Sequence record: ON528716
Length of the DNA: 39,818 bases
Reading direction: 5' to 3' (one strand)
Origin: Shigella phage ESh2
Shown one piece after another: positions 715 to 36,932 of the stretch; position 1 is the stretch's first letter; every line of letters begins with the position of its first letter. The notes beneath the pieces were generated by a model that was not told the origin of the DNA, made no database searches, and worked only from the letters and a program-made list of their open reading frames with translations. The position numbers and the translations under genes were made by a program.

Positions 715-885
715 CTGTTACAGCCTCCTAAAGTATCCTCCTAAAGTCACCTCCTAACGTCCATCCTAAAGCCTACTCCTAAAGCCTACACCTAAAGACA
801 CCATCAAGTCAACGCCTATCTTAAAGTTTAAACATAAAGACCATACCTAAAGACACTACATAAAGACCATACCTAACGATGCCTT
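715..885. repeat. array of cctaaag-type heptamer repeats (left-end repeats)
   Basis: ctcctaaag, tcctcctaaag, acctcctaacg, atcctaaag, ctcctaaag, acacctaaag, cataaagaccatacctaaaga x2 seen directly. Confidence 0.7.
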
Positions 886-938
886 GTTGTTGGCCATAAA
901 GAGATACCTTAATCATAATCTTTAATCATTGTCTTTAT

Positions 939-961
939 TAATACGACTCACTATAAGGAGA
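939..961 (+). promoter_or_regulatory. T7 RNAP promoter phiOL
   Basis: taatacgactcactataaggaga, 23-bp T7 class promoter consensus with A at +1. Confidence 0.8.
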
Positions 962-1014
962 GGACACTTAAAGAAACTCAAAAGAGATTAATTTAAAATT
1001 TATCAAAAAGAGTA

Positions 1015-1043
1015 TTGACTTAAAGTCTAACCTATAGGATACT
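1015..1043 (+). promoter_or_regulatory. E. coli sigma70 early promoter A1
   Basis: TTGACT (1015-1020), 17-bp spacer, GATACT (1038-1043); matches T7 A1 as recalled. Confidence 0.8.
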
Positions 1044-1140
1044 ATGAGCCATCGAGAGGGACACGGCGAATAGCCATCATAATCGACACCGGGTCAAACG
1101 GTTAAGTAGACAGCCTGATAAGTCGTATGAAAAACAGGTA

Positions 1141-1170
1141 TTGACAACATGAAGTAACATGAAGTAAGAT
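1141..1170 (+). promoter_or_regulatory. E. coli sigma70 early promoter A2
   Basis: TTGACA (1141-1146), 18-bp spacer, TAAGAT (1165-1170). Confidence 0.75.
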
Positions 1171-1245
1171 ACACAGCGTCAACCACTGATACGGTGTCTT
1201 CTAGGCGACTTAAGCGCACCACGGCACATAAAGTGAAACAAACGG

Positions 1246-1274
1246 TTGACAACATGAAGTAAACACGGTACGAT
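1246..1274 (+). promoter_or_regulatory. E. coli sigma70 early promoter A3
   Basis: TTGACA (1246-1251), 17-bp spacer, TACGAT (1269-1274). Confidence 0.75.
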
Positions 1275-1396
1275 GTACCACATGAAACGACAGTGAGGCG
1301 CAACACTGAAACGCGCTAGGGTCTAACGAAACCTGACCGACATGCTCTTTAACAATCTGGTAAATAGCTCTTGAGTGTACCGTATAAAGCGAATAA

Positions 1397-1430
1397 CTCA
1401 AGGTCGCACTGAAAGCGTGGCCTTTATGAT
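1397..1430 (+). promoter_or_regulatory. RNase III processing hairpin (R0.3-like)
   Basis: ctcaaggtcgcactgaaagcgtggcctttatgat; member of conserved hairpin family. Confidence 0.6.
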
Positions 1431-1464
1431 ATTCACTTAACGAACTAACATGAGGTAACACCAA

Positions 1465-1923
1465 ATGATTTTCACTAAAGAGCCCGCTAACGTCTTCTAT
1501 GTACTGGTGTCAGCTTTCCGTTCCAACCTCGACGATGAGGTGAACATGAGTCGCCACCGCCACATGGTTAGTACTTTACGTGCCGCACCGGGTCTTTACG
1601 GCTCCGTTGAGTCAACCGATTTGACAGGATGCTATCGTGAGGCAATCGCAAGCGCACCGACTGAGGAAAAAACGATTCGTGTACGCTGCAAGGACAAAGA
1701 GCAGGCACTCAATGTTGCACGCTTAGCTTGTAATGAGTGGGAGCAAGATTGCGTACTGGTATACAAATCACAGACTCACACGGCTGGTCTGGTGTACGCT
1801 AAAGGTTTCAATGGGTATAAGGCCGAACGTCTGCTGGGTAGCTTCCAAGAAGTGCCTAAAGGCGCACCGCTTAAAGGCTGCTTCACGATTGATGAGTTCG
1901 GTCGCCGCTGGCAAGTACAGTAA
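1465..1923 (+). CDS. 0.3: S-adenosylmethionine lyase/hydrolase (T3-type SAMase), anti-restriction
   Basis: 152 aa; SD gaggt 8 nt upstream; MIFTKEPANVFYVLVSAFRSN... near-identical to T3 gp0.3 SAMase as recalled, unrelated to T7 Ocr. Confidence 0.85.
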   Translation: MIFTKEPANVFYVLVSAFRSNLDDEVNMSRHRHMVSTLRAAPGLYGSVESTDLTGCYREAIASAPTEEKTIRVRCKDKEQALNVARLACNEWEQDCVLVYKSQTHTAGLVYAKGFNGYKAERLLGSFQEVPKGAPLKGCFTIDEFGRRWQVQ

Positions 1924-1933
1924 GTGATAGGCC

Positions 1934-1965
1934 CAAGGTCGCTCAATACGAGTGGCCTTTATGAT
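1934..1965 (+). promoter_or_regulatory. RNase III processing hairpin
   Basis: ccaaggtcgctcaatacgagtggcctttatgat; second copy of the motif. Confidence 0.55.
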
Positions 1966-1995
1966 TATCATTTAACACGCTATAGGACTAACATC

Positions 1996-2196
1996 ATGAG
2001 TAAACTTCTGGCAACCTCTAAAATCAAAGGCCAATGCACTGTAACGCTGCGTGAGTACTATCACGGGTCAATGGGATGCACCTACGTTGTGCGCTACGGC
2101 AAACAGGTCACACATTGGGTAAACCCGATTTTAGCGCAAGAGGAGTATCAAGCCTGTGTGATACACCAAGCAACGTGTGCAGGTTGGAACGATTGA
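1996..2196 (+). CDS. hypothetical early protein (66 aa)
   Basis: In-frame ATG at 1996 downstream of RNase III hairpin within ORF 1924..2196; weak SD; position corresponds to T7 0.4-0.6 block. Confidence 0.4.
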   Translation: MSKLLATSKIKGQCTVTLREYYHGSMGCTYVVRYGKQVTHWVNPILAQEEYQACVIHQATCAGWND

Positions 2197-2226
2197 CAAC
2201 AGCCTTCAAGTCTACCAAGTGGTAAA

Positions 2227-2260
2227 CTCAAGGTCGCTCCATGCGAGTGGCCTTCATGAT
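2227..2260 (+). promoter_or_regulatory. RNase III processing hairpin
   Basis: ctcaaggtcgctccatgcgagtggccttcatgat; third tandem copy. Confidence 0.55.
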
Positions 2261-2282
2261 TATCACTTTACGTATGGGAGTA

Positions 2283-2417
2283 ATGTATATGTTTACTATC
2301 GGTCTGCTCACCGCTCTGGGTCTAGCTGTAGGCGCATCCTTCGGGAAGTCTTTGGGTGTAGCTGTAGGTGCTTACTTGGTGGCTTGTATCATTACGGGAG
2401 CACTGCGCAAATGCTGA
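2283..2417 (+). CDS. hypothetical small hydrophobic protein (44 aa)
   Basis: SD gggag then ATG 2283; [44 protein letters not shown], predicted single TM helix; below ORF-track cutoff. Confidence 0.4.
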   Translation: MYMFTIGLLTALGLAVGASFGKSLGVAVGAYLVACIITGALRKC

Positions 2418-2548
2418 AACACTACGTTATGCCTATCCACACTTCCAATGGGGCGACCGTATGCACACCTGATGGGTTCGCAATGAAACAGCGAATCGAA
2501 CGCCTTAAGCGTGAACTGCGCATCAACCGCAAGATTAACAGAATCTAA
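2411..2548 (+). CDS. hypothetical small basic protein (45 aa)
   Basis: ATG 2411 overlapping preceding stop (ATGCTGA); [45 protein letters not shown]. Confidence 0.35.
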
Positions 2549-2567
2549 CTTTTGGAGAATACATAAA

Positions 2568-3647
2568 GTGAACATTACCGACATCATGAACGCTATCGAC
2601 ACAGTCAAAGAGCTTCCAATCTGTGAACTTGATAAGCGCCAAGGTATGCTTATCGACTTACTGGTTGAGATGGTCAACAGCGAAACGTGTGATGGCGAAA
2701 TGACCGAACTAAATCAGGCACTTGAGTATCAAGATTGGTGGACTACCTTGAAGTGTCTCACGACTGACGCAGGTTTTAAGATGCTCGGTAATGGTCACTT
2801 CTCGGCTGCTTATAGTCACCCGCTGCTGCCTAATAGAGTGATTAAGGTGGGCTTTAAGAAAGAGGACTCAGGCGCTGCGTATACCGCATTCTGTCGCATG
2901 TATCAGGGTCGCGCTGGTATCCCTAACGTCTACGATGTACAGCGCCACGCTGGCTGCTATACGGTTGTACTCGATGCGCTGAACGATTGCGACCGTTACG
3001 ATAACGATGAGCATTATAAGTATGCTGAGATTGCAAGTGACATCATTGACTACAAATCAGATGAGCACGATGGGTTAACTGGATGGGATGGCGAGTTCGT
3101 CGAGACTTGCAAGTTAATCCGCAAGTTCTTTGAGGGCATCGCTTCGTTCGACATGCACAGCGGGAACATTATGTTCAGCGATGATGATACACCATACATT
3201 ACCGACCCTGTATCGTTCTCGCAGAAGAAAGACGGTGGCTCATTCAGTATCGACCCTGAGGAACTCATTAAGGAAGTCGAGGAAGTCGCACGCCAGAAAG
3301 CAATCGACCGCGCTAAGGAACGTAAAGAACGTCATGTGGGTCGATTGGAGGCACGCAGATTCAAACGTCGCAACCGCAAGGCACGTAAAGCACACAAAGC
3401 TAAGAGCGAAAGAATGCTTGCTGCGTGGCGTATGGCTGAGCGCCAAGAACGACGTAACCATGAGGTAGCTGTAGATGTACTAGGTCGAACCAATAACGCC
3501 ATGCTCTGGGTTAACATGTTAGCTGGGGACTTTAAGGCACTTGAAGAACGAGTTGCAGCGCACTGGTTTAATGCTGACCGGATGGCTATCGCTAACGGTC
3601 TTCCACTCAACATCGATAAGAAACTTGATGCAATGCTAATGGGCTGA
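2568..3647 (+). CDS. 0.7: serine/threonine protein kinase / host transcription shutoff
   Basis: 359 aa from GTG at 2568 (SD ggag 8 nt upstream); near-identical to T7 gp0.7 from [11 protein letters not shown]... onward. Confidence 0.9.
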
Positions 3648-3654
3648 TAATCTT

Positions 3655-3690
3655 ATCTTACAGGTCATCTATGGGTGGCCTGAATAGATA
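3655..3690 (+). promoter_or_regulatory. RNase III processing hairpin R1 upstream of gene 1
   Basis: caggtcatctatgggtggcctg imperfect hairpin in the 0.7-1 intergenic region. Confidence 0.45.
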
Positions 3691-3717
3691 CGATTTACTA
3701 ACCGGAAGAGGCACTAA

Positions 3718-6369
3718 ATGAACACGATTAACATCGCTAAGAACGACTTCTCTGATATCGAACTGGCTGCTATCCCGTTTAATACTCTGGCTGACCATTA
3801 CGGTGAGCGTTTAGCTCGCGAACAGTTGGCCCTTGAGCATGAGTCTTACGAAATGGGTGAAGCACGATTCCGCAAGATGTTTGAGCGTCAACTTAAAGCT
3901 GGTGAGGTTGCGGACAACGCTGCCGCTAAGCCTCTCATTACTACCCTGCTCCCCAAGATGATTGCACGCATCAACGATTGGTTTGAGGAAGTGAAAGCTA
4001 AGCGAGGCAAGCGCCCGACAGCCTTCCAGTTCCTGCAAGAAATCAAGCCGGAAGCAATAGCGTATATCACCATTAAGACAACTCTGGCTTGCCTCACAAG
4101 CGTAGACAATACAACAGTTCAGGCTGTAGCAAGTGCAATCGGTCGAGCTATTGAGGACGAGGCGCGCTTTGGTCGTATCCGTGACCTTGAAGCTAAGCAC
4201 TTCAAGAAAAATGTTGAGGAGCAACTAAACAAGCGCGTAGGGCACGTCTACAAGAAAGCATTCATGCAGGTTGTCGAAGCTGATATGCTCTCTAAGGGTC
4301 TGCTAGGTGGCGAGGCGTGGTCTTCGTGGCACAAGGAGGACTCCATTCACGTAGGTGTGCGCTGCATTGAGATGCTCATTGAGTCAACCGGAATGGTCAG
4401 CTTGCATCGTCAAAACGCAGGCGTAGTCGGGCAAGACTCTGAGACTATCGAACTCGCACCGGAATACGCTGAGGCTATCGCAACCCGTGCTGGTGCACTG
4501 GCTGGTATCTCTCCGATGTTCCAACCTTGCGTAGTTCCTCCTAAGCCTTGGACTGGTATTACTGGTGGCGGCTATTGGGCTAACGGTCGCCGTCCTCTGG
4601 CACTGGTGCGCACTCACAGTAAGAAAGCACTGATGCGCTATGAAGACGTTTACATGCCTGAGGTGTACAAAGCGATTAACATTGCGCAAAACACCGCATG
4701 GAAAATCAACAAGAAAGTCCTAGCGGTCGCCAACGTAATCACCAAGTGGAAGCACTGCCCCGTAGAGGACATCCCAGCGATTGAACGTGAAGAACTCCCG
4801 ATGAAACCGGAAGACATCGACACGAATCCTGAGGCGCTCACCGCTTGGAAACGTGCTGCTGCTGCTGTGTATCGCAAGGACAAGGCTCGCAAGTCTCGCC
4901 GTATCGGCCTTGAGTTCATGCTTGAGCAAGCCAATAAGTTCGCTAACCATAAGGCCATCTGGTTCCCTTACAACATGGACTGGCGCGGTCGTGTTTACGC
5001 TGTGTCAATGTTCAACCCGCAAGGTAACGATATGACCAAGGGTCTGCTGACGCTGGCTAAAGGTAAACCAATCGGTAAAGAAGGTTACTACTGGCTGAAA
5101 ATCCACGGTGCAAACTGTGCTGGTGTCGATAAGGTTCCGTTCCCTGAGCGTATCAAGTTCATTGAGGACAACCACGAGAACATCATGGCTTGCGCTAAGT
5201 CTCCACTGGAGAACACTTGGTGGGCTGAGCAAGATTCTCCATTCTGTTTCCTAGCGTTCTGCTTTGAGTACGCTGGGGTACAGCACCACGGATTAAGTTA
5301 CAACTGCTCTCTTCCACTGGCGTTCGATGGGTCTTGCTCTGGTATTCAGCACTTCTCCGCGATGCTCCGCGATGAGGTAGGTGGTCGTGCTGTTAACCTG
5401 CTTCCTAGTGAAACCGTTCAGGACATCTACGGGATTGTCGCTAAGAAAGTCAACGAGATTCTGCAAGCTGATGTAATCAACGGGACCGACAACGAAGTAG
5501 TAACCGTGACCGATGAGAACACTGGTGAAATCTCTGAGAAAGTCAAGCTGGGTACTAAGGCGCTGGCTGGTCAATGGCTGGCTTACGGTGTTACTCGCAG
5601 TGTGACTAAGCGTTCAGTCATGACGCTGGCTTACGGGTCCAAAGAGTTCGGCTTCCGTCAACAAGTGCTGGAGGACACCATTCAGCCAGCAATTGATTCC
5701 GGTAAGGGTCTGATGTTCACGCAACCGAATCAGGCTGCTGGATACATGGCTAAACTGATTTGGGAAGCTGTGAGCGTCACGGTGGTGGCTGCGGTTGAAG
5801 CAATGAACTGGCTCAAGTCTGCTGCTAAGCTGCTGGCTGCTGAGGTCAAAGATAAGAAGACTGGAGAGATTCTTCGCAAGCGTTGCGCTGTACATTGGGT
5901 GACTCCTGATGGGTTCCCTGTGTGGCAGGAATACAAGAAGCCTGTTCAGACTCGCTTGAACCTGATTTTCCTCGGTCAGTTCCGTCTGCAACCTACCATT
6001 AACACCAACAAGGATAGCGAGATTGACGCACACAAACAGGAGTCCGGTATCGCTCCTAACTTTGTGCATAGCCAAGACGGTAGCCACCTGCGCAAGACTG
6101 TGGTGTGGGCGCATGAGAAGTACGGAATCGAATCCTTTGCACTGATTCATGACTCCTTCGGGACCATTCCGGCTGACGCTGCTAACCTGTTCAAAGCTGT
6201 TCGCGAAACTATGGTGGACACCTATGAGTCTTGTGATGTACTGGCTGACTTCTACGACCAGTTCGCTGACCAGTTGCATGAGTCTCAATTGGACAAAATG
6301 CCAGCACTTCCGTCTAAAGGTAACTTGAACCTCCAAGACATCCTTAAGTCAGACTTCGCGTTCGCGTAA
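3718..6369 (+). CDS. 1: DNA-directed RNA polymerase (single-subunit, T7 type)
   Basis: 883 aa; near-identical to T7 RNAP (MNTINIAKNDFSDIELAAIPFNTLADHYGERLAREQ...); matches the T7-type promoters in the genome. Confidence 0.99.
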   Translation: MNTINIAKNDFSDIELAAIPFNTLADHYGERLAREQLALEHESYEMGEARFRKMFERQLKAGEVADNAAAKPLITTLLPKMIARINDWFEEVKAKRGKRPTAFQFLQEIKPEAIAYITIKTTLACLTSVDNTTVQAVASAIGRAIEDEARFGRIRDLEAKHFKKNVEEQLNKRVGHVYKKAFMQVVEADMLSKGLLGGEAWSSWHKEDSIHVGVRCIEMLIESTGMVSLHRQNAGVVGQDSETIELAPEYAEAIATRAGALAGISPMFQPCVVPPKPWTGITGGGYWANGRRPLALVRTHSKKALMRYEDVYMPEVYKAINIAQNTAWKINKKVLAVANVITKWKHCPVEDIPAIEREELPMKPEDIDTNPEALTAWKRAAAAVYRKDKARKSRRIGLEFMLEQANKFANHKAIWFPYNMDWRGRVYAVSMFNPQGNDMTKGLLTLAKGKPIGKEGYYWLKIHGANCAGVDKVPFPERIKFIEDNHENIMACAKSPLENTWWAEQDSPFCFLAFCFEYAGVQHHGLSYNCSLPLAFDGSCSGIQHFSAMLRDEVGGRAVNLLPSETVQDIYGIVAKKVNEILQADVINGTDNEVVTVTDENTGEISEKVKLGTKALAGQWLAYGVTRSVTKRSVMTLAYGSKEFGFRQQVLEDTIQPAIDSGKGLMFTQPNQAAGYMAKLIWEAVSVTVVAAVEAMNWLKSAAKLLAAEVKDKKTGEILRKRCAVHWVTPDGFPVWQEYKKPVQTRLNLIFLGQFRLQPTINTNKDSEIDAHKQESGIAPNFVHSQDGSHLRKTVVWAHEKYGIESFALIHDSFGTIPADAANLFKAVRETMVDTYESCDVLADFYDQFADQLHESQLDKMPALPSKGNLNLQDILKSDFAFA

Positions 6370-8285: not shown

Positions 8286-8375
8286 ATGATGTACTTAATG
8301 CCATTACTCATTGTCATTCTAGGATGCCTTGCGCTCCACTGTAGCGATGATGATATGCCAGATGGTCACGCCTAA
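8286..8375 (+). CDS. 1.5: gene 1.5 protein (29 aa)
   Basis: MMYLMPLLIVILGCLALHCSDDDMPDGHA matches T7 gp1.5. Confidence 0.75.
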   Translation: MMYLMPLLIVILGCLALHCSDDDMPDGHA

Positions 8376-8395
8376 TACGACTAACTAAAGGAGAC
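8373..8395 (+). promoter_or_regulatory. T7 RNAP promoter phi1.6 (variant with A at -7)
   Basis: taatacgactaactaaaggagac; C-to-A at -7 relative to consensus. Confidence 0.6.
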
Positions 8396-10130: not shown

Positions 10131-10586
10131 GTGGCTGGCGCATACGCTGCGCGTGGTATCAGAAAGGTCGGGACATTCCGTTCCGGCCTAGAAGATAAGG
10201 TCTCTAAGCAGCTAGAGAGTAAAGGTATACAGTTTGACTACGAGCAGTGGAAGATTCCATACGTAGTCCCTGCGAGTAATCATACCTATTGTCCAGATTT
10301 TCTACTGCCCAATGGTATCTTTATCGAGACCAAAGGACTATGGGAAAGTGATGACCGCAAGAAGCACCTACTTATTCGCGAGCAGATGCCTGAGCTAGAT
10401 ATACGACTTGTGTTCTCAAGCTCCCGAACAAAGCTCTACAAAGGGTCTCCAACGTCCTATGCAGAATTTTGTGAAAAGCACGGCATCAAGTTTGCTGATA
10501 AGCTGATTCCAGTTGAGTGGCTCAAAGAGCCTAAACGGGAGGTGCCATTCGATAAGCTCAAACAGTCAAAAGGAGCTAAGAAGTGA
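10131..10586 (+). CDS. 3: endonuclease I (Holliday junction resolvase)
   Basis: 151 aa from GTG at 10131 immediately after the 2.5 stop; MAGAYAARGIRKVGTFRSGLEDKVSKQLESKG...PDFLLPNGIFIETKG matches T7 gp3. Confidence 0.9.
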   Translation: MAGAYAARGIRKVGTFRSGLEDKVSKQLESKGIQFDYEQWKIPYVVPASNHTYCPDFLLPNGIFIETKGLWESDDRKKHLLIREQMPELDIRLVFSSSRTKLYKGSPTSYAEFCEKHGIKFADKLIPVEWLKEPKREVPFDKLKQSKGAKK

Positions 10587-11041
10587 TTCATCCAAAACTC
10601 TTGATAGAGCCGACCGATTCCTGTATTGAATGGACAGGCGCGTTCCACAAGAACGGGTACGGAGTAATCTCTTTGAATCGCAAAGTAGCTGCCGAACTAG
10701 GAATACCTAGGGTGCAATTTGTACACAGGGCAAGCTACATGCAGCATAAAGGAACTATAGGTGATGGACTTGTTGTTCGTCACCTGTGTCACAACAGAAA
10801 GTGTTTCAACCCAGCTCACTTGGAAGTCGGCACTCAGTACGATAACTTCGAAGATAGTGTTAAGGTTGGTCGCAACAAACGTAAACTGCTTGATGAGGAC
10901 GTTAAATCAATTAGAGAGTCCACAATGAGTAACCGCAAGTTAGCCAAGCTATACGGTGTTAGCTCTACAACGATCTTCCACATCAAGCACAACAACAAGT
11001 GGAGGAATTTAAATGGCACGAGTACAATTCAAACAGCGTGA
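10583..11041 (+). CDS. HNH homing endonuclease (free-standing), inserted between genes 3 and 3.5
   Basis: 152 aa from GTG 10583 (SD aggag 7 nt upstream); motifs EWTGAFHKNGYG, HRASY, RHLCHNRKCFNPAHLEVGTQYDN; C-terminal region SNRKLAKLYGVSSTTIFHI resembles a helix-turn-helix. Confidence 0.8.
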   Translation: MIHPKLLIEPTDSCIEWTGAFHKNGYGVISLNRKVAAELGIPRVQFVHRASYMQHKGTIGDGLVVRHLCHNRKCFNPAHLEVGTQYDNFEDSVKVGRNKRKLLDEDVKSIRESTMSNRKLAKLYGVSSTTIFHIKHNNKWRNLNGTSTIQTA

Positions 11042-19128: not shown

Positions 19129-19449
19129 ATGGGTAAGAAAGTCAAGAAGGTAGTTAAGAAAGTAACTAAGCCCGTTGAGAAAGCCGTAAAGAAAGTTACC
19201 AAGGAAGTGACTCGTCCTATTAAACAGGTTGCTGGTGCGCTGGCGGGTGGTGCTGGTGAAGCACAAGTAGTTGAAGTTCCACAACCAACAGCTGCTGCTA
19301 CTCCTGCTGCACAAATTGTTGACGTACCTGAGAAAGAGGTTTCCACTGATGACGAAGCACAGACCGAAAGCGGACGCAAGAAAGCTCGTTCTGAAGGTAA
19401 GAAGTCCTTGAGTGTAGCCCGTAGCTCCGGTGGGGGTATAAATATATGA
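19129..19449 (+). CDS. 7.3: gene 7.3 tail-associated protein (Lys-rich N-terminus)
   Basis: 106 aa; MGKKVKKVVKKVTKPVEKAVKKVTKE... ending SVARSSGGGINI; matches T7 gp7.3 with a 7-aa PTAAATP insertion. Confidence 0.9.
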   Translation: MGKKVKKVVKKVTKPVEKAVKKVTKEVTRPIKQVAGALAGGAGEAQVVEVPQPTAAATPAAQIVDVPEKEVSTDDEAQTESGRKKARSEGKKSLSVARSSGGGINI

Positions 19450-19847
19450 CAGATTGTATCCTTCATACTGGTTGCACGACTAAAGGAGGGTACGGTCTCG
19501 TTGGTTATAAAGGTAAGACACAGCTGGCTCACAGGGTATCATACATCAAATCAAAGGGTGAGATACCGACTGGTATGGTCATAATGCATACCTGTGACAA
19601 CCCTCTGTGTATCAACCCTGAACATCTTGTAGCTGGAACTCAGCGTGATAACCGTATGGACTGTGTAACTAAAGGTAGAGCGAACGTATCCAGAGGTGAA
19701 GAGCATTATTGTGCCAAGCTCACTGAGGCCATTGTGCGTGAGATTCGTGCATCAAATTTAACCAACACTGAGTTGTCAGAAGTGTATGGCATCCATAGGA
19801 GAACCATTAGTGACGCTCGATGTGGTAAGACATGGAGACATATTTAA
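19446..19847 (+). CDS. 7.7: HNH homing endonuclease at the gene 7.7 position
   Basis: 133 aa; TKGGYGLVGYKGKTQLAHRVSY...HTCDNPLCINPEHLVAGTQRDN HNH motif; C-terminal NTELSEVYGIHRRTISD HTH-like; stop overlaps gene 8 start by 1 nt. Confidence 0.85.
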   Translation: MTDCILHTGCTTKGGYGLVGYKGKTQLAHRVSYIKSKGEIPTGMVIMHTCDNPLCINPEHLVAGTQRDNRMDCVTKGRANVSRGEEHYCAKLTEAIVREIRASNLTNTELSEVYGIHRRTISDARCGKTWRHI

Positions 19848-34613: not shown

Positions 34614-36311
34614 ATGGCTAACGTAATTAAAACCGTTTTGACTTACCAGTTAGATGGCTCCAATCGTGATTTTAATATCCGGTTTGAGTATCTAGCCCGT
34701 AAGTTCGTAGTGGTAACTCTTATTGGGGTAGACCGTAAGGTCCTTACGATTAATACAGACTACCGTTTTGCTACTCGCACCACTATCTCATTGACCAAGG
34801 CTTGGGGACCAGCGGATGGCTACACTACCATCGAGTTACGTCGAGTAACCTCCACGACCGACCGATTGGTTGATTTTACGGACGGCTCAATCCTCCGCGC
34901 GTATGACCTTAACGTCGCTCAGATTCAAACGATGCACGTAGCGGAAGAGGCCCGTGACCTAACTGCCGATACTATCGGTGTCAACAACGATGGTCACTTG
35001 GATGCGCGTGGTCGTCGAATTGTGAACCTAGCGAACGCTGTGGATGACCGTGATGCTGTTCCGTTTGGTCAACTTAAGACCATGAACCAGAACTCATGGC
35101 AAGCTCGTAATGAAGCCTTACAGTTCCGCAATGAGGCTGAGACTTTCCGTAACCAAGCGGAGGGCTTTAAGAATGAGTCCAGCACGAACGCAACGAATAC
35201 CAATCAATGGCGCATTGAGGCTGAGGGGTTCCGTAATGAGGCTGAACAGTTCAAGAACACTGCGACACAACAGGCTACCGCTGCTGGGAACTCTGCTGCT
35301 GCTGCTCACCAATCGGAGATTAACGCCGAGAACTCAGCGACTGACTCTGCTAGCTCTGCTCATTTAGCAGAACAGCAAGCTGACCGTGCTGAGCGCGAAG
35401 CAGACAAGTTGGGTAACTGGAATGCTCTTGCTGGAGCTATTGACCATGTTGACGGTACTCGTGTGTTCTGGAAAGGCGAGCAACATTCTGATGGCAGACT
35501 ATATCTAACCACTAATGGATTCGATATTGGGCAGTATCAACAGTTCTTTGGTGGTGTTACTAACCGTTATTCAGTAATGGAGTGGGGTGATAAGTACGGC
35601 TGGCATTTGTACTCGGAGCGTCAAACCGAGGGTGGTACGACAACATTGAACCTTCGAGGACATATGACAGCAAATGGTAACGTCCGCGCTGCTGGTAACT
35701 CCTATACGAATAACCTCTTTGAGATGGACCGAGAGCAGCATTGGCCCGGTCGTGGTGCGTTTGCGAACCAGTATGCGGACAGGGCTGCACCATTTACCAA
35801 GACTGGTCGTTATCAGGCACCTAACGGGTACTCAGAGTATTATCCTATTGTTAAAGCCTATGTTGAAACACAAGGTTACGGGTATGGTACGGTTGCTACC
35901 TTCGGTATGCTAACCTCTGGAGGTGGTAGGTTTGCTAATGGGTGTGTCCACGTTATTGGGGATAATGGTGTTAATGGTCTCTGGCAGTTCGACCCTAACA
36001 CTGGTGGTTTCCTATCACGCGGAGATGTACATGTTGGAGATGGCGGTGTCGTCTACCAGAACGGTGACATATATGGTACGGTGTGGGGTGGTCGGCCTAT
36101 TTCACAGTGGTTAGGGGACCAGACCGTAAACCACATTGCTATGGGTGGTGTTAACTTTGCTCAGCTATGGAATAGTTACGGTATAGGAGATGGTGGTGGT
36201 AAGGTGATCACAGGAATCACCAACAGTAACGCTGATGCGCTAGTCGATGGATGCCAGTGGCGAGTAATGCAGTATGTCCGCAACAACGGACAGTGTTTCA
36301 ATATTTATTAA
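34614..36311 (+). CDS. 17: tail fibre protein; T7-like N-terminal and shaft region (aa 1 to about 326), divergent C-terminal receptor-binding region (aa about 327-565)
   Basis: 565 aa; MANVIKTVLTYQLDGSNRDFNIRFEYLARKF... matches T7 gp17 through ...GGVTNRYSVMEWGD, then diverges into a Gly-rich sequence unlike the T7 tip domain as recalled. Confidence 0.95.
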   Translation: MANVIKTVLTYQLDGSNRDFNIRFEYLARKFVVVTLIGVDRKVLTINTDYRFATRTTISLTKAWGPADGYTTIELRRVTSTTDRLVDFTDGSILRAYDLNVAQIQTMHVAEEARDLTADTIGVNNDGHLDARGRRIVNLANAVDDRDAVPFGQLKTMNQNSWQARNEALQFRNEAETFRNQAEGFKNESSTNATNTNQWRIEAEGFRNEAEQFKNTATQQATAAGNSAAAAHQSEINAENSATDSASSAHLAEQQADRAEREADKLGNWNALAGAIDHVDGTRVFWKGEQHSDGRLYLTTNGFDIGQYQQFFGGVTNRYSVMEWGDKYGWHLYSERQTEGGTTTLNLRGHMTANGNVRAAGNSYTNNLFEMDREQHWPGRGAFANQYADRAAPFTKTGRYQAPNGYSEYYPIVKAYVETQGYGYGTVATFGMLTSGGGRFANGCVHVIGDNGVNGLWQFDPNTGGFLSRGDVHVGDGGVVYQNGDIYGTVWGGRPISQWLGDQTVNHIAMGGVNFAQLWNSYGIGDGGGKVITGITNSNADALVDGCQWRVMQYVRNNGQCFNIY

Positions 36312-36326
36312 TAGGAGGAGTATGGT

Positions 36327-36932
36327 ATGGGAACTTTACGTCACTATAAGAACTTCGTAAACTATGTACCAGAGCGTACCAAAGATAATGCAGACCTTCT
36401 AGACCACGGCGTTGGCTTCTCAAAGGACGAGAATGGGAATGACTGGTATGAACTGCGTAATACATTCCGTGAGGATACATGGAAACTTGTCTATGCCAAA
36501 GACGGTTCTGTAATTCAGTGTGAACAGGATGTTCAGGAGTTAGCCGTTCAGGGTTCTGCTGGTGTGGTTGAACTTGAGGAAATCCCTGCTGAATACTCTC
36601 GGTATAATATGATGCAGTGGTGGTGGGACGGCGAGAAGCTCACTTGGTATCCAAGATACTTTGAGAACCAGAAGGCTCGTCTAATCTCTATGGCCTCCAA
36701 GAAGATTGAGCAGTATGCTGACTTTATGGCGCTTGGGGAGGAGGGGCTAGAAGGCATCTTAAATGCGTGGCGAGCCTATCGCCTTGCTGTATATAAAGTG
36801 GACCTAAGTGTTCTGCCTTTCTATGACTGGCCTGAGAAGCCTGAGGACTTATTAACAACAACACACAAGGAAAGACGTGTAGTCCACGGAAGGACTCTTA
36901 CAAGGAGGACACGTGCTGTCTTTAGATTTTAA
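36327..36932 (+). CDS. putative tail-fibre assembly chaperone (lambda Tfa-like)
   Basis: 201 aa; SD aggagg 8 nt upstream of ATG; C-terminal signature NAWRAYRLAVYKVDLSVLPFYDWPEKPED resembles the W..YR..L..VD.S..P..WP..P motif of Tfa-family proteins; no gene at this position in T7. Confidence 0.65.
   Translation: MGTLRHYKNFVNYVPERTKDNADLLDHGVGFSKDENGNDWYELRNTFREDTWKLVYAKDGSVIQCEQDVQELAVQGSAGVVELEEIPAEYSRYNMMQWWWDGEKLTWYPRYFENQKARLISMASKKIEQYADFMALGEEGLEGILNAWRAYRLAVYKVDLSVLPFYDWPEKPEDLLTTTHKERRVVHGRTLTRRTRAVFRF

Follow-up and report, generated by a model that had tools for sequence, protein, structure and literature searches.

A predicted T3/phiYeO3-12-type SAM lyase in place of Ocr as gene 0.3 of a Teseptimavirus

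Which anti-restriction protein does a T7-like phage encode as its gene 0.3? A genus-level answer comes from the BASEL study, according to which Ocr is the protein of Teseptimavirus phages and a SAM-degrading enzyme that of every other genus of the Studiervirinae (PMC8594841). The genome of Shigella phage ESh2 (ON528716) brings this rule into question: the original prediction, made from its DNA alone, placed a T3-type SAM-cleaving enzyme, and not Ocr, at gene 0.3 of an otherwise T7-type genome. The SAM lyase (SAMase) family, its mechanism, and the mosaicism of the T7 group are already established, and T3 itself is a known recombinant. We analyzed the whole 39,818-bp stretch of DNA, hereafter the window, which is a whole phage genome in a circularly permuted record. 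It is ~92–93% identical to T7 DNA over most of its length, and its best database relatives are Teseptimaviruses. Positions 1–541 correspond to the right-end region of T7, with gene 19.5 at 152–301, and from 542 the T7 left end follows. Only one copy of the terminal repeat (~542–712) is present in the record, so the true linear genome should exceed 39,818 bp by ~170 bp.

Gene 0.3 of the window is an intact open reading frame of 152 codons (Table 1). Its product matched the Pfam family PF23780 (S-AdoMet_lyase) over profile positions 1–132 of 133 (E=2.9e-43), scoring 147.4 bits where the curated cutoff of the family is 28, and it matched PHROG 2226 with E=8e-54. Among all PDB chains, the sole real match was T3 SAMase (7OCK/8BB1), which aligned end to end with 144 of 152 residues identical (E=1e-96). 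By contrast, BLASTP of the window SAMase against T7 Ocr gave no alignment even at E≤100. A tblastn search of the whole window with T7 Ocr returned two 10-residue chance matches only (E>7), indicating that Ocr is absent. Because there is no Ocr gene anywhere in the window, the SAMase gene replaces Ocr and is not an addition to it. A T3-type SAMase at gene 0.3 had thus been correctly predicted, and the comparison with T3 gp0.3 and T7 Ocr came out on the side of the T3 enzyme. The sequence GAGGT lies 8–12 nt 5′ of the gene 0.3 start codon and also precedes the internal start. We looked for a compositional anomaly of gene 0.3 by GC content and found none, the values being 0.508 for the gene, 0.485 for the genome, and 0.511 for the RNA polymerase (RNAP) gene.

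What the protein would do can be judged from its T3 counterpart. T3 SAMase is a lyase that yields methylthioadenosine (MTA) and homoserine lactone (eLife PMC7877911). SAM is positioned by E68 and Q94, the E68Q/Q94A double mutant is inactive, and D95 also belongs to the active site (bioRxiv 10.1101/2023.02.27.530186; eLife PMC7877911). The same protein binds E. coli MetK by way of two elements, the N-terminal tail (I2, T4, and K5) and the beta4-beta5 loop (Q103-T104-H105); SAM synthesis is inhibited through this binding, which is specific to the host's MetK, and both the lyase and the MetK activities serve to defeat BREX (bioRxiv 10.1101/2023.02.27.530186). Type I restriction-modification (R-M) is disabled by the loss of SAM (bioRxiv 10.1101/2023.02.27.530186; review PMC12707154).

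The window SAMase has E67, E68, Q94, and D95 (T3 numbering) all in place, and it is identical to T3 SAMase at every one of the MetK contacts I2, T4, K5, Q103, T104, and H105. The gene differs from that of T3 by 34 nt and 8 amino acids (C23D, S62A, V71I, A79E, I115F, D116N, P124L, and Q137K, from T3 to window), and all eight substitutions lie outside the catalytic and MetK-contact residues. It differs from the phiYeO3-12 gene by 24 nt and 6 amino acids (V71I, A79E, I115F, D116N, P124L, and Q137K, from phiYeO3-12 to window). Given its 95% identity to the characterized T3 enzyme, we infer that the window SAMase converts SAM to 5′-methylthioadenosine and homoserine lactone. SAM depletion coupled with MetK inhibition is predicted because the functional residues are conserved, and this dual mechanism is very probably the one by which gene 0.3 of the window acts. 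The protein would bind host MetK and block SAM resynthesis. SAM-dependent defenses, including type I R-M (e.g., EcoKI) and BREX, would be deprived of their cofactor, and the removal of SAM would keep the phage DNA unmethylated. The set of defenses that the enzyme is expected to overcome follows from its homology with T3 gp0.3.

Might the window SAMase have lost or changed its function, either binding MetK only or persisting as a decaying passenger, with anti-restriction coming from something else? Its six amino acid changes relative to phiYeO3-12 exceed the 0–2 differences found among the Teetrevirus alleles that we compared, and the nonsynonymous share is likewise above that seen among those alleles. 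Lyase activity is moreover not strictly required, as a catalytically dead T3 SAMase retains partial anti-BREX activity via MetK (bioRxiv 10.1101/2023.02.27.530186). However, the residues whose importance was shown by mutagenesis are intact, the frame is full length, and the internal start, from which T3 obtains its 0.3B protein, is kept. The codon differences from phiYeO3-12 comprise 17 synonymous and 6 nonsynonymous changes, a ratio that fits purifying selection on gene 0.3, and Ocr, the other known anti-restriction gene, was not found in the window. We therefore consider loss or change of function improbable and favor a functional SAM lyase of the T3/phiYeO3-12 type, acting in place of Ocr as gene 0.3 of a Teseptimavirus.

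The remainder of the genome is T7-type, also as predicted. The RNAP encoded by gene 1 differs from that of T7 at 12 of 883 residues and keeps R746, N748, R756, and Q758; T3 RNAP has D at the N748 position, and gene 1 shares ~77% DNA identity with the T3 RNAP gene. The predicted number of T7 promoters, 17, was recovered exactly: all are of the T7 type (GACTCACTA core), lie on the + strand, and occupy the positions expected from T7, whereas a scan of the window with the T3 promoter consensus, allowing up to 3 mismatches, gave 0 matches. The position aligned to phiOL in T3 and phiYeO3-12 reads ACCCTCACTA. The 17th promoter, phi1.6, was found only by a scan allowing ≤7 mismatches to the 23-base T7 consensus. 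Because of the A at -7, phi1.6 departs from the otherwise invariant CTCACTA core, and the promoter may be weakened. Thirteen segments collinear with T7 cover most of the window, mostly at ~88–94% DNA identity, with three of them lower, at ~74–85%.

Table 1. Positions of gene 0.3, its flanking signals, and T7-type features in the window
Feature	Position	Strand	Basis or remark
T7-type promoter phiOL, TAATACGACTCACTATAAGGAGA	939..961	+	one mismatch to T7 consensus; 5′ of early operon
Host sigma-70 early promoter A1, T7-type	1015-1043	+	consensus scan
Host sigma-70 early promoter A2, T7-type	1141-1170	+	consensus scan
Host sigma-70 early promoter A3, T7-type	1246-1274	+	consensus scan
Left crossover interval, T7-type upstream / T3-type downstream	1364..1379	+	multiple alignment
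R0.3 RNase III hairpin (putative), T3/phiYeO3-12 allele	1387..1438	+	-16.2 kcal/mol, z=-3.7
Gene 0.3, SAM lyase (SAMase), 152 aa	1465..1923	+	ATG-to-TAA ORF (start ATG 1465, stop TAA 1923)
Internal in-frame start, 0.3B form, codon 28	1546	+	GAGGTG in front
R0.45 RNase III hairpin (putative)	1921..1974	+	-23.1 kcal/mol, z=-4.9; annotated R0.45 in phiYeO3-12
Gene 0.45, 66 aa	1996..2196	+	PHROG 6500, E=7e-44
R0.5 RNase III hairpin (putative)	2218..2267	+	-21 kcal/mol, z=-4.5
Gene 1, T7-type RNA polymerase, 883 aa	3718..6369	+	871/883 identical to T7 RNAP
phi1.6 promoter, TAATACGACTAACTAAAGGAGAC	8373-8395	+	A for C at -7; 6 mismatches to consensus

We delimited the foreign DNA by BLAST, multiple alignments, and a 50-nt sliding identity track, using T7, 3A_8767, and KKE5P as T7-type references and T3, phiYeO3-12, and MegaDucksbill as T3-type references. 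Only T3-type sequence was found in a tract of ~550 bp (~1379–1925) that is bounded by the R0.3 and R0.45 hairpins and set in the T7-type backbone, confirming that the early region is mosaic. At the left boundary, the diagnostic bases switch within ATAGCTCTTGAGTG, a stretch common to both lineages that lies immediately 5′ of R0.3. The sliding identity at 1300–1349 was 100% to 3A_8767 versus 88% to the T3-type genomes, and at 1400–1449 it was 100% to phiYeO3-12/T3 versus 72–76% to the T7-type genomes. From 1465 to ~1920, the window aligned to T3-type genomes only. The R0.3 hairpin carries the T3/phiYeO3-12 allele and, from this alignment, appears to have been co-transferred with gene 0.3.

The right boundary lies at R0.45, where homology to the Ocr-bearing phages 3A_8767 and KKE5P returns at ~1919–1950. 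Gene 0.45, which follows, was 92–98% identical to KKE5P (T7-type) and 92–100% identical to MegaDucksbill (T3-type), and a Pfam search of it gave no match. It is a small conserved early gene of Teetrevirus phages and of many Ocr-bearing Teseptimavirus phages, and in both groups it always lies between RNase III hairpins. Homology to T7 itself returns at 2197. From ~2200, at R0.5, only T7-type genomes aligned, and the genes after R0.5 (0.5, 0.6A, and 0.7) are T7-type. In 3A_8767 and KKE5P, the gene order is Ocr-0.4-R0.45-0.45-R0.5-0.5, and the window differs from them only between R0.3 and R0.45. A single cassette thus separates the genomes, R0.3 plus SAMase in the window versus R0.3 plus ocr plus 0.4 in 3A_8767/KKE5P. 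Measured against T7, the novel stretch spans 1468–2196; it reaches 2196 because T7 lacks gene 0.45.

The signals around gene 0.3 bear on whether a gene from one lineage would be expressed in the other. The early promoters A1–A3 have 9–10 of 12 consensus matches and align with the annotated A1–A3 of T7, and the region that contains them (1015..1274) is 94–100% identical to T7 and 3A_8767. The R0.3 hairpin aligns with the annotated stem-loops of T3 (822–875) and phiYeO3-12 (956–1009). A fold of R0.3 over 1362–1440 was also considered and dropped (z only -1.5), the correct hairpin being that in Table 1. Because an Rfam scan of 800–4000 at E≤1 returned no family, the RNase III sites have only their folds and their alignment with annotated T3/phiYeO3-12 features to support them. 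By comparison with the T3/phiYeO3-12 annotation, gene 0.3 is the first class I gene, 3′ of A1–A3 and R0.3. It would be the first gene into the cell, where host RNA polymerase would transcribe it from A1–A3 and RNase III would cut out a monocistronic gene 0.3 mRNA at R0.3 and R0.45. Since it is the host polymerase that would transcribe gene 0.3, the T7 specificity of the phage polymerase should have no effect on its expression. Both lineages share the promoters, the processing sites, and the ribosome-binding site, which should make the SAMase cassette plug-and-play regardless of phage RNAP specificity.

We then asked how often a SAMase accompanies a T7-type polymerase. A composite SAMase+RNAP query was run against a phage collection of 50,697 records. 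Approximately 175 records matched it at ≥90% identity and were taken as the T7-type-polymerase set; among these, a SAMase was found only in two other Teseptimaviruses, Escherichia phage AV103 (OR352934) and Yersinia phage vB_Yep_15 (PV596791). Both have an RNAP 98% identical to that of T7 and carry the SAMase at the gene 0.3 slot. The SAMase alleles of the window, AV103, and vB_Yep_15 differ by 32–46 nt. One of these two earlier GenBank cases is annotated as a SAM hydrolase; the SAMase of vB_Yep_15 is annotated as a hypothetical protein only, and the paper on AV103 says nothing about its SAMase.

None of the 7 metagenome loci and 20 IMG/VR loci that we inspected had an RNAP >95% identical to that of T7 near the SAMase; these loci comprised only Teetrevirus, Berlin-type, and more distant contexts. 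Berlin-type phages, including Kvp1, carry a SAMase, alone or with Ocr. A SAMase together with an Ocr-like gene was found in locus L016, whose RNAP has 90% protein identity to that of T7, and in phage Ebrios, whose RNAP gene resembles that of T7 far less at the DNA level. Tandems of Ocr and SAMase, in one order or the other, occur in some Berlin-type genomes. Among the Studiervirinae in general, Ocr precedes SAMase at 1075–1943 of L018 (IMG/VR and metagenome contigs), and SAMase precedes Ocr at 5001–5835 of L019 and in L030 and L032 (IMG/VR and metagenome contigs) as well as in AV103. Studiervirinae with both genes side by side stack both anti-restriction strategies. The gene 0.3 slot is evidently a hot spot for the shuffling of anti-restriction genes. 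The window genome breaks the BASEL genus rule that Teseptimavirus phages carry Ocr, a rare situation but one with precedents.

A mosaic of this kind could in principle be produced by assembly, if T7-like and T3-like phages in one sample had contributed reads that were joined at shared sequence. Both junctions do lie where the two lineages have the same or almost the same sequence, and the record, being circularly permuted with a collapsed terminal repeat, has the style of a short-read assembly. Junctions in lineage-shared sequence are, however, expected for true recombination and for an assembly chimera alike. The SAMase allele matches no known phage, its best database match being 95.2% at the nucleotide level, to Klebsiella/Citrobacter Teetreviruses and phiYeO3-12, and its divergence from its nearest relatives is about that of the backbone from its own (roughly 92–93% identity). 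In a cluster look-up, the exact protein came up on one NCBI contig only, the window itself. Within the tract, a clean single cassette, neither the reading frames nor the processing sites are disrupted. The window architecture also recurs in the independently sequenced vB_Yep_15, and AV103 has the SAMase as well. We judge a chimera very improbable.

A real exchange between lineages is the reading that we prefer. The gene 0.3 allele nests inside the Teetrevirus clade. The T3 type was predicted correctly, but T3 does not hold the nearest allele: those of phiYeO3-12 and of Klebsiella Teetreviruses are nearer. Gene 0.3 is ~95% identical to Teetrevirus alleles at the nucleotide level versus ~77% DNA identity of the RNAP gene to that of T3, which argues for recent transfer between lineages. 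Homologous recombination with a Teetrevirus-type phage would have brought the SAMase into a Teseptimavirus genome through crossovers in the conserved leader/RNase III-site sequence on both sides of the gene 0.3 slot, and the SAMase gene would have displaced an Ocr+0.4 cassette. The reverse history, with a SAMase as the ancestral occupant of the slot in this Teseptimavirus lineage and a later arrival of Ocr in T7 and its relatives, could draw on the presence of a SAMase in the gene 0.3 slot of most Studiervirinae genera (PMC8594841) and on the existence of SAMase and Ocr tandems in either order, but it is the least probable of the alternatives, given an allele that falls among the Teetrevirus alleles despite the RNAP divergence from T3 and a SAMase in only 2 of the ~175 records of the T7-type-polymerase set.

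How many times such transfer into Teseptimavirus phages took place was addressed with a neighbor-joining (NJ) tree. The three T7-type alleles (window, AV103, and vB_Yep_15) were never monophyletic (0 of 200 bootstraps), and the vB_Yep_15 SAMase nested with phiYeO3-12-like alleles. The window and AV103 alleles share E79, the lineage switch falls at one and the same conserved stretch in the two genomes, and the alleles paired in 22% of bootstraps; an initial count of three independent acquisitions was softened on these grounds. At least two independent acquisitions of a SAMase by Teseptimavirus phages are defensible from the tree.

Other parts of the window also depart from T7. The tail fiber gene (565 aa, within 34614–36932) encodes a T7-type N-terminal domain (PF03906), and its C-terminal part (~235 aa, from about nt 35605) matches neither T7 nor T3. 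A separate tail-fiber assembly chaperone gene (36327–36932; PF02413, PHROG 136) follows it. The best DNA match of this region was Shigella phage ESh6 (86.7%), and the chaperone part resembles those of EmilieLinder/Bas103 and Cedecea phage Yanou. The divergent fiber suggests a host receptor different from that of T7. HNH homing-endonuclease frames (PF13392) are located at 10583–11041, between genes 3 and 3.5, where T7 has nothing, and at 19446–19847, at the gene 7.7 position, where the DNA is unrelated to T7 gene 7.7. No match to T7 genes 2.8 and 5.3 was found in the window. The endonuclease I gene, gene 3 (PF05367; 10131–10586), has ~74% DNA identity to T7, compared with ~92% for its neighbors, and appears to be another exchanged module. 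Approximately 250 bp of T7 (1766–2021, the 0.6B extension region) are absent at window 2540–2570, and the alignment places the start of gene 0.7 at a GTG codon at 2568, preceded by GGAG; the T7 gene has ATG there.

For a phage, exchanging Ocr for a SAMase might carry a benefit beyond restriction itself. The PARIS abortive-infection system is triggered by Ocr (PMC9122126), and we found no equivalent trigger by SAMase in the literature examined. It is conceivable, though we think it rather unlikely, that the gene 0.3 slot of the T7 group is a recombination cassette site with conserved RNase III hairpins on its flanks, in which Ocr and SAMase have been repeatedly exchanged or stacked, and that the swap from Ocr to SAMase was selected, with R-M/BREX evasion being kept and the PARIS trigger lost. 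If this were true, the window phage or vB_Yep_15 and the Ocr-bearing KKE5P/3A_8767 would form naturally isogenic-like pairs, a test bed for how the choice of anti-defense shapes host range. Phages with SAMase instead of Ocr should differ in their response to SAM-dependent defenses and would, by inference, evade PARIS where it is triggered by Ocr.

The window genome corrects the genus-level rule of the BASEL study, Ocr in Teseptimavirus and SAMase in the rest. With this rule broken, the choice of T7-like phages for therapy or biocontrol cannot rely on taxonomy for their anti-defense content. The R0.3-to-R0.45 cassette indicates that conserved RNA-processing sites can act as homology arms for early-gene swaps, and the same logic could be used to engineer T7-family phages. 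The gain is incremental because the gene and its mechanism are already well characterized.

Among known systems, vB_Yep_15 shares with the window the SAMase+0.45 layout without Ocr, but it has a T7-type R0.3 hairpin, and its left junction lies ~50 nt further downstream. Unlike the window, AV103 has retained Ocr, whose gene immediately follows that of the SAMase (L001, 1156–2069). In phiYeO3-12, the order SAMase-R0.45-0.45 is the same, window 1244–2192 aligned to it at 91.8%, and its allele is the nearest to that of the window among those compared base by base; its early genes 0.6 and 0.7, its RNAP, and its promoters are Teetrevirus-type, whereas those of the window are T7-type. T3 gp0.3 (UniProt P07693; PDB 7OCK, 8BB1) has the same length of 152 aa, the same slot, the same internal start at codon 28, the same type of upstream RNase III site, and identical catalytic and MetK-contact residues, but it is accompanied by T3-type RNA polymerase and promoters, in contrast to the T7-type polymerase and promoters of the window. 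T7 Ocr, like the window SAMase, is encoded by the first early gene in a context of host promoters and RNase III processing, and the two proteins would serve the same end, the defeat of type I restriction and BREX. They have no sequence similarity, and their strategies differ, with Ocr sequestering the enzyme by DNA mimicry and SAMase destroying the cofactor.
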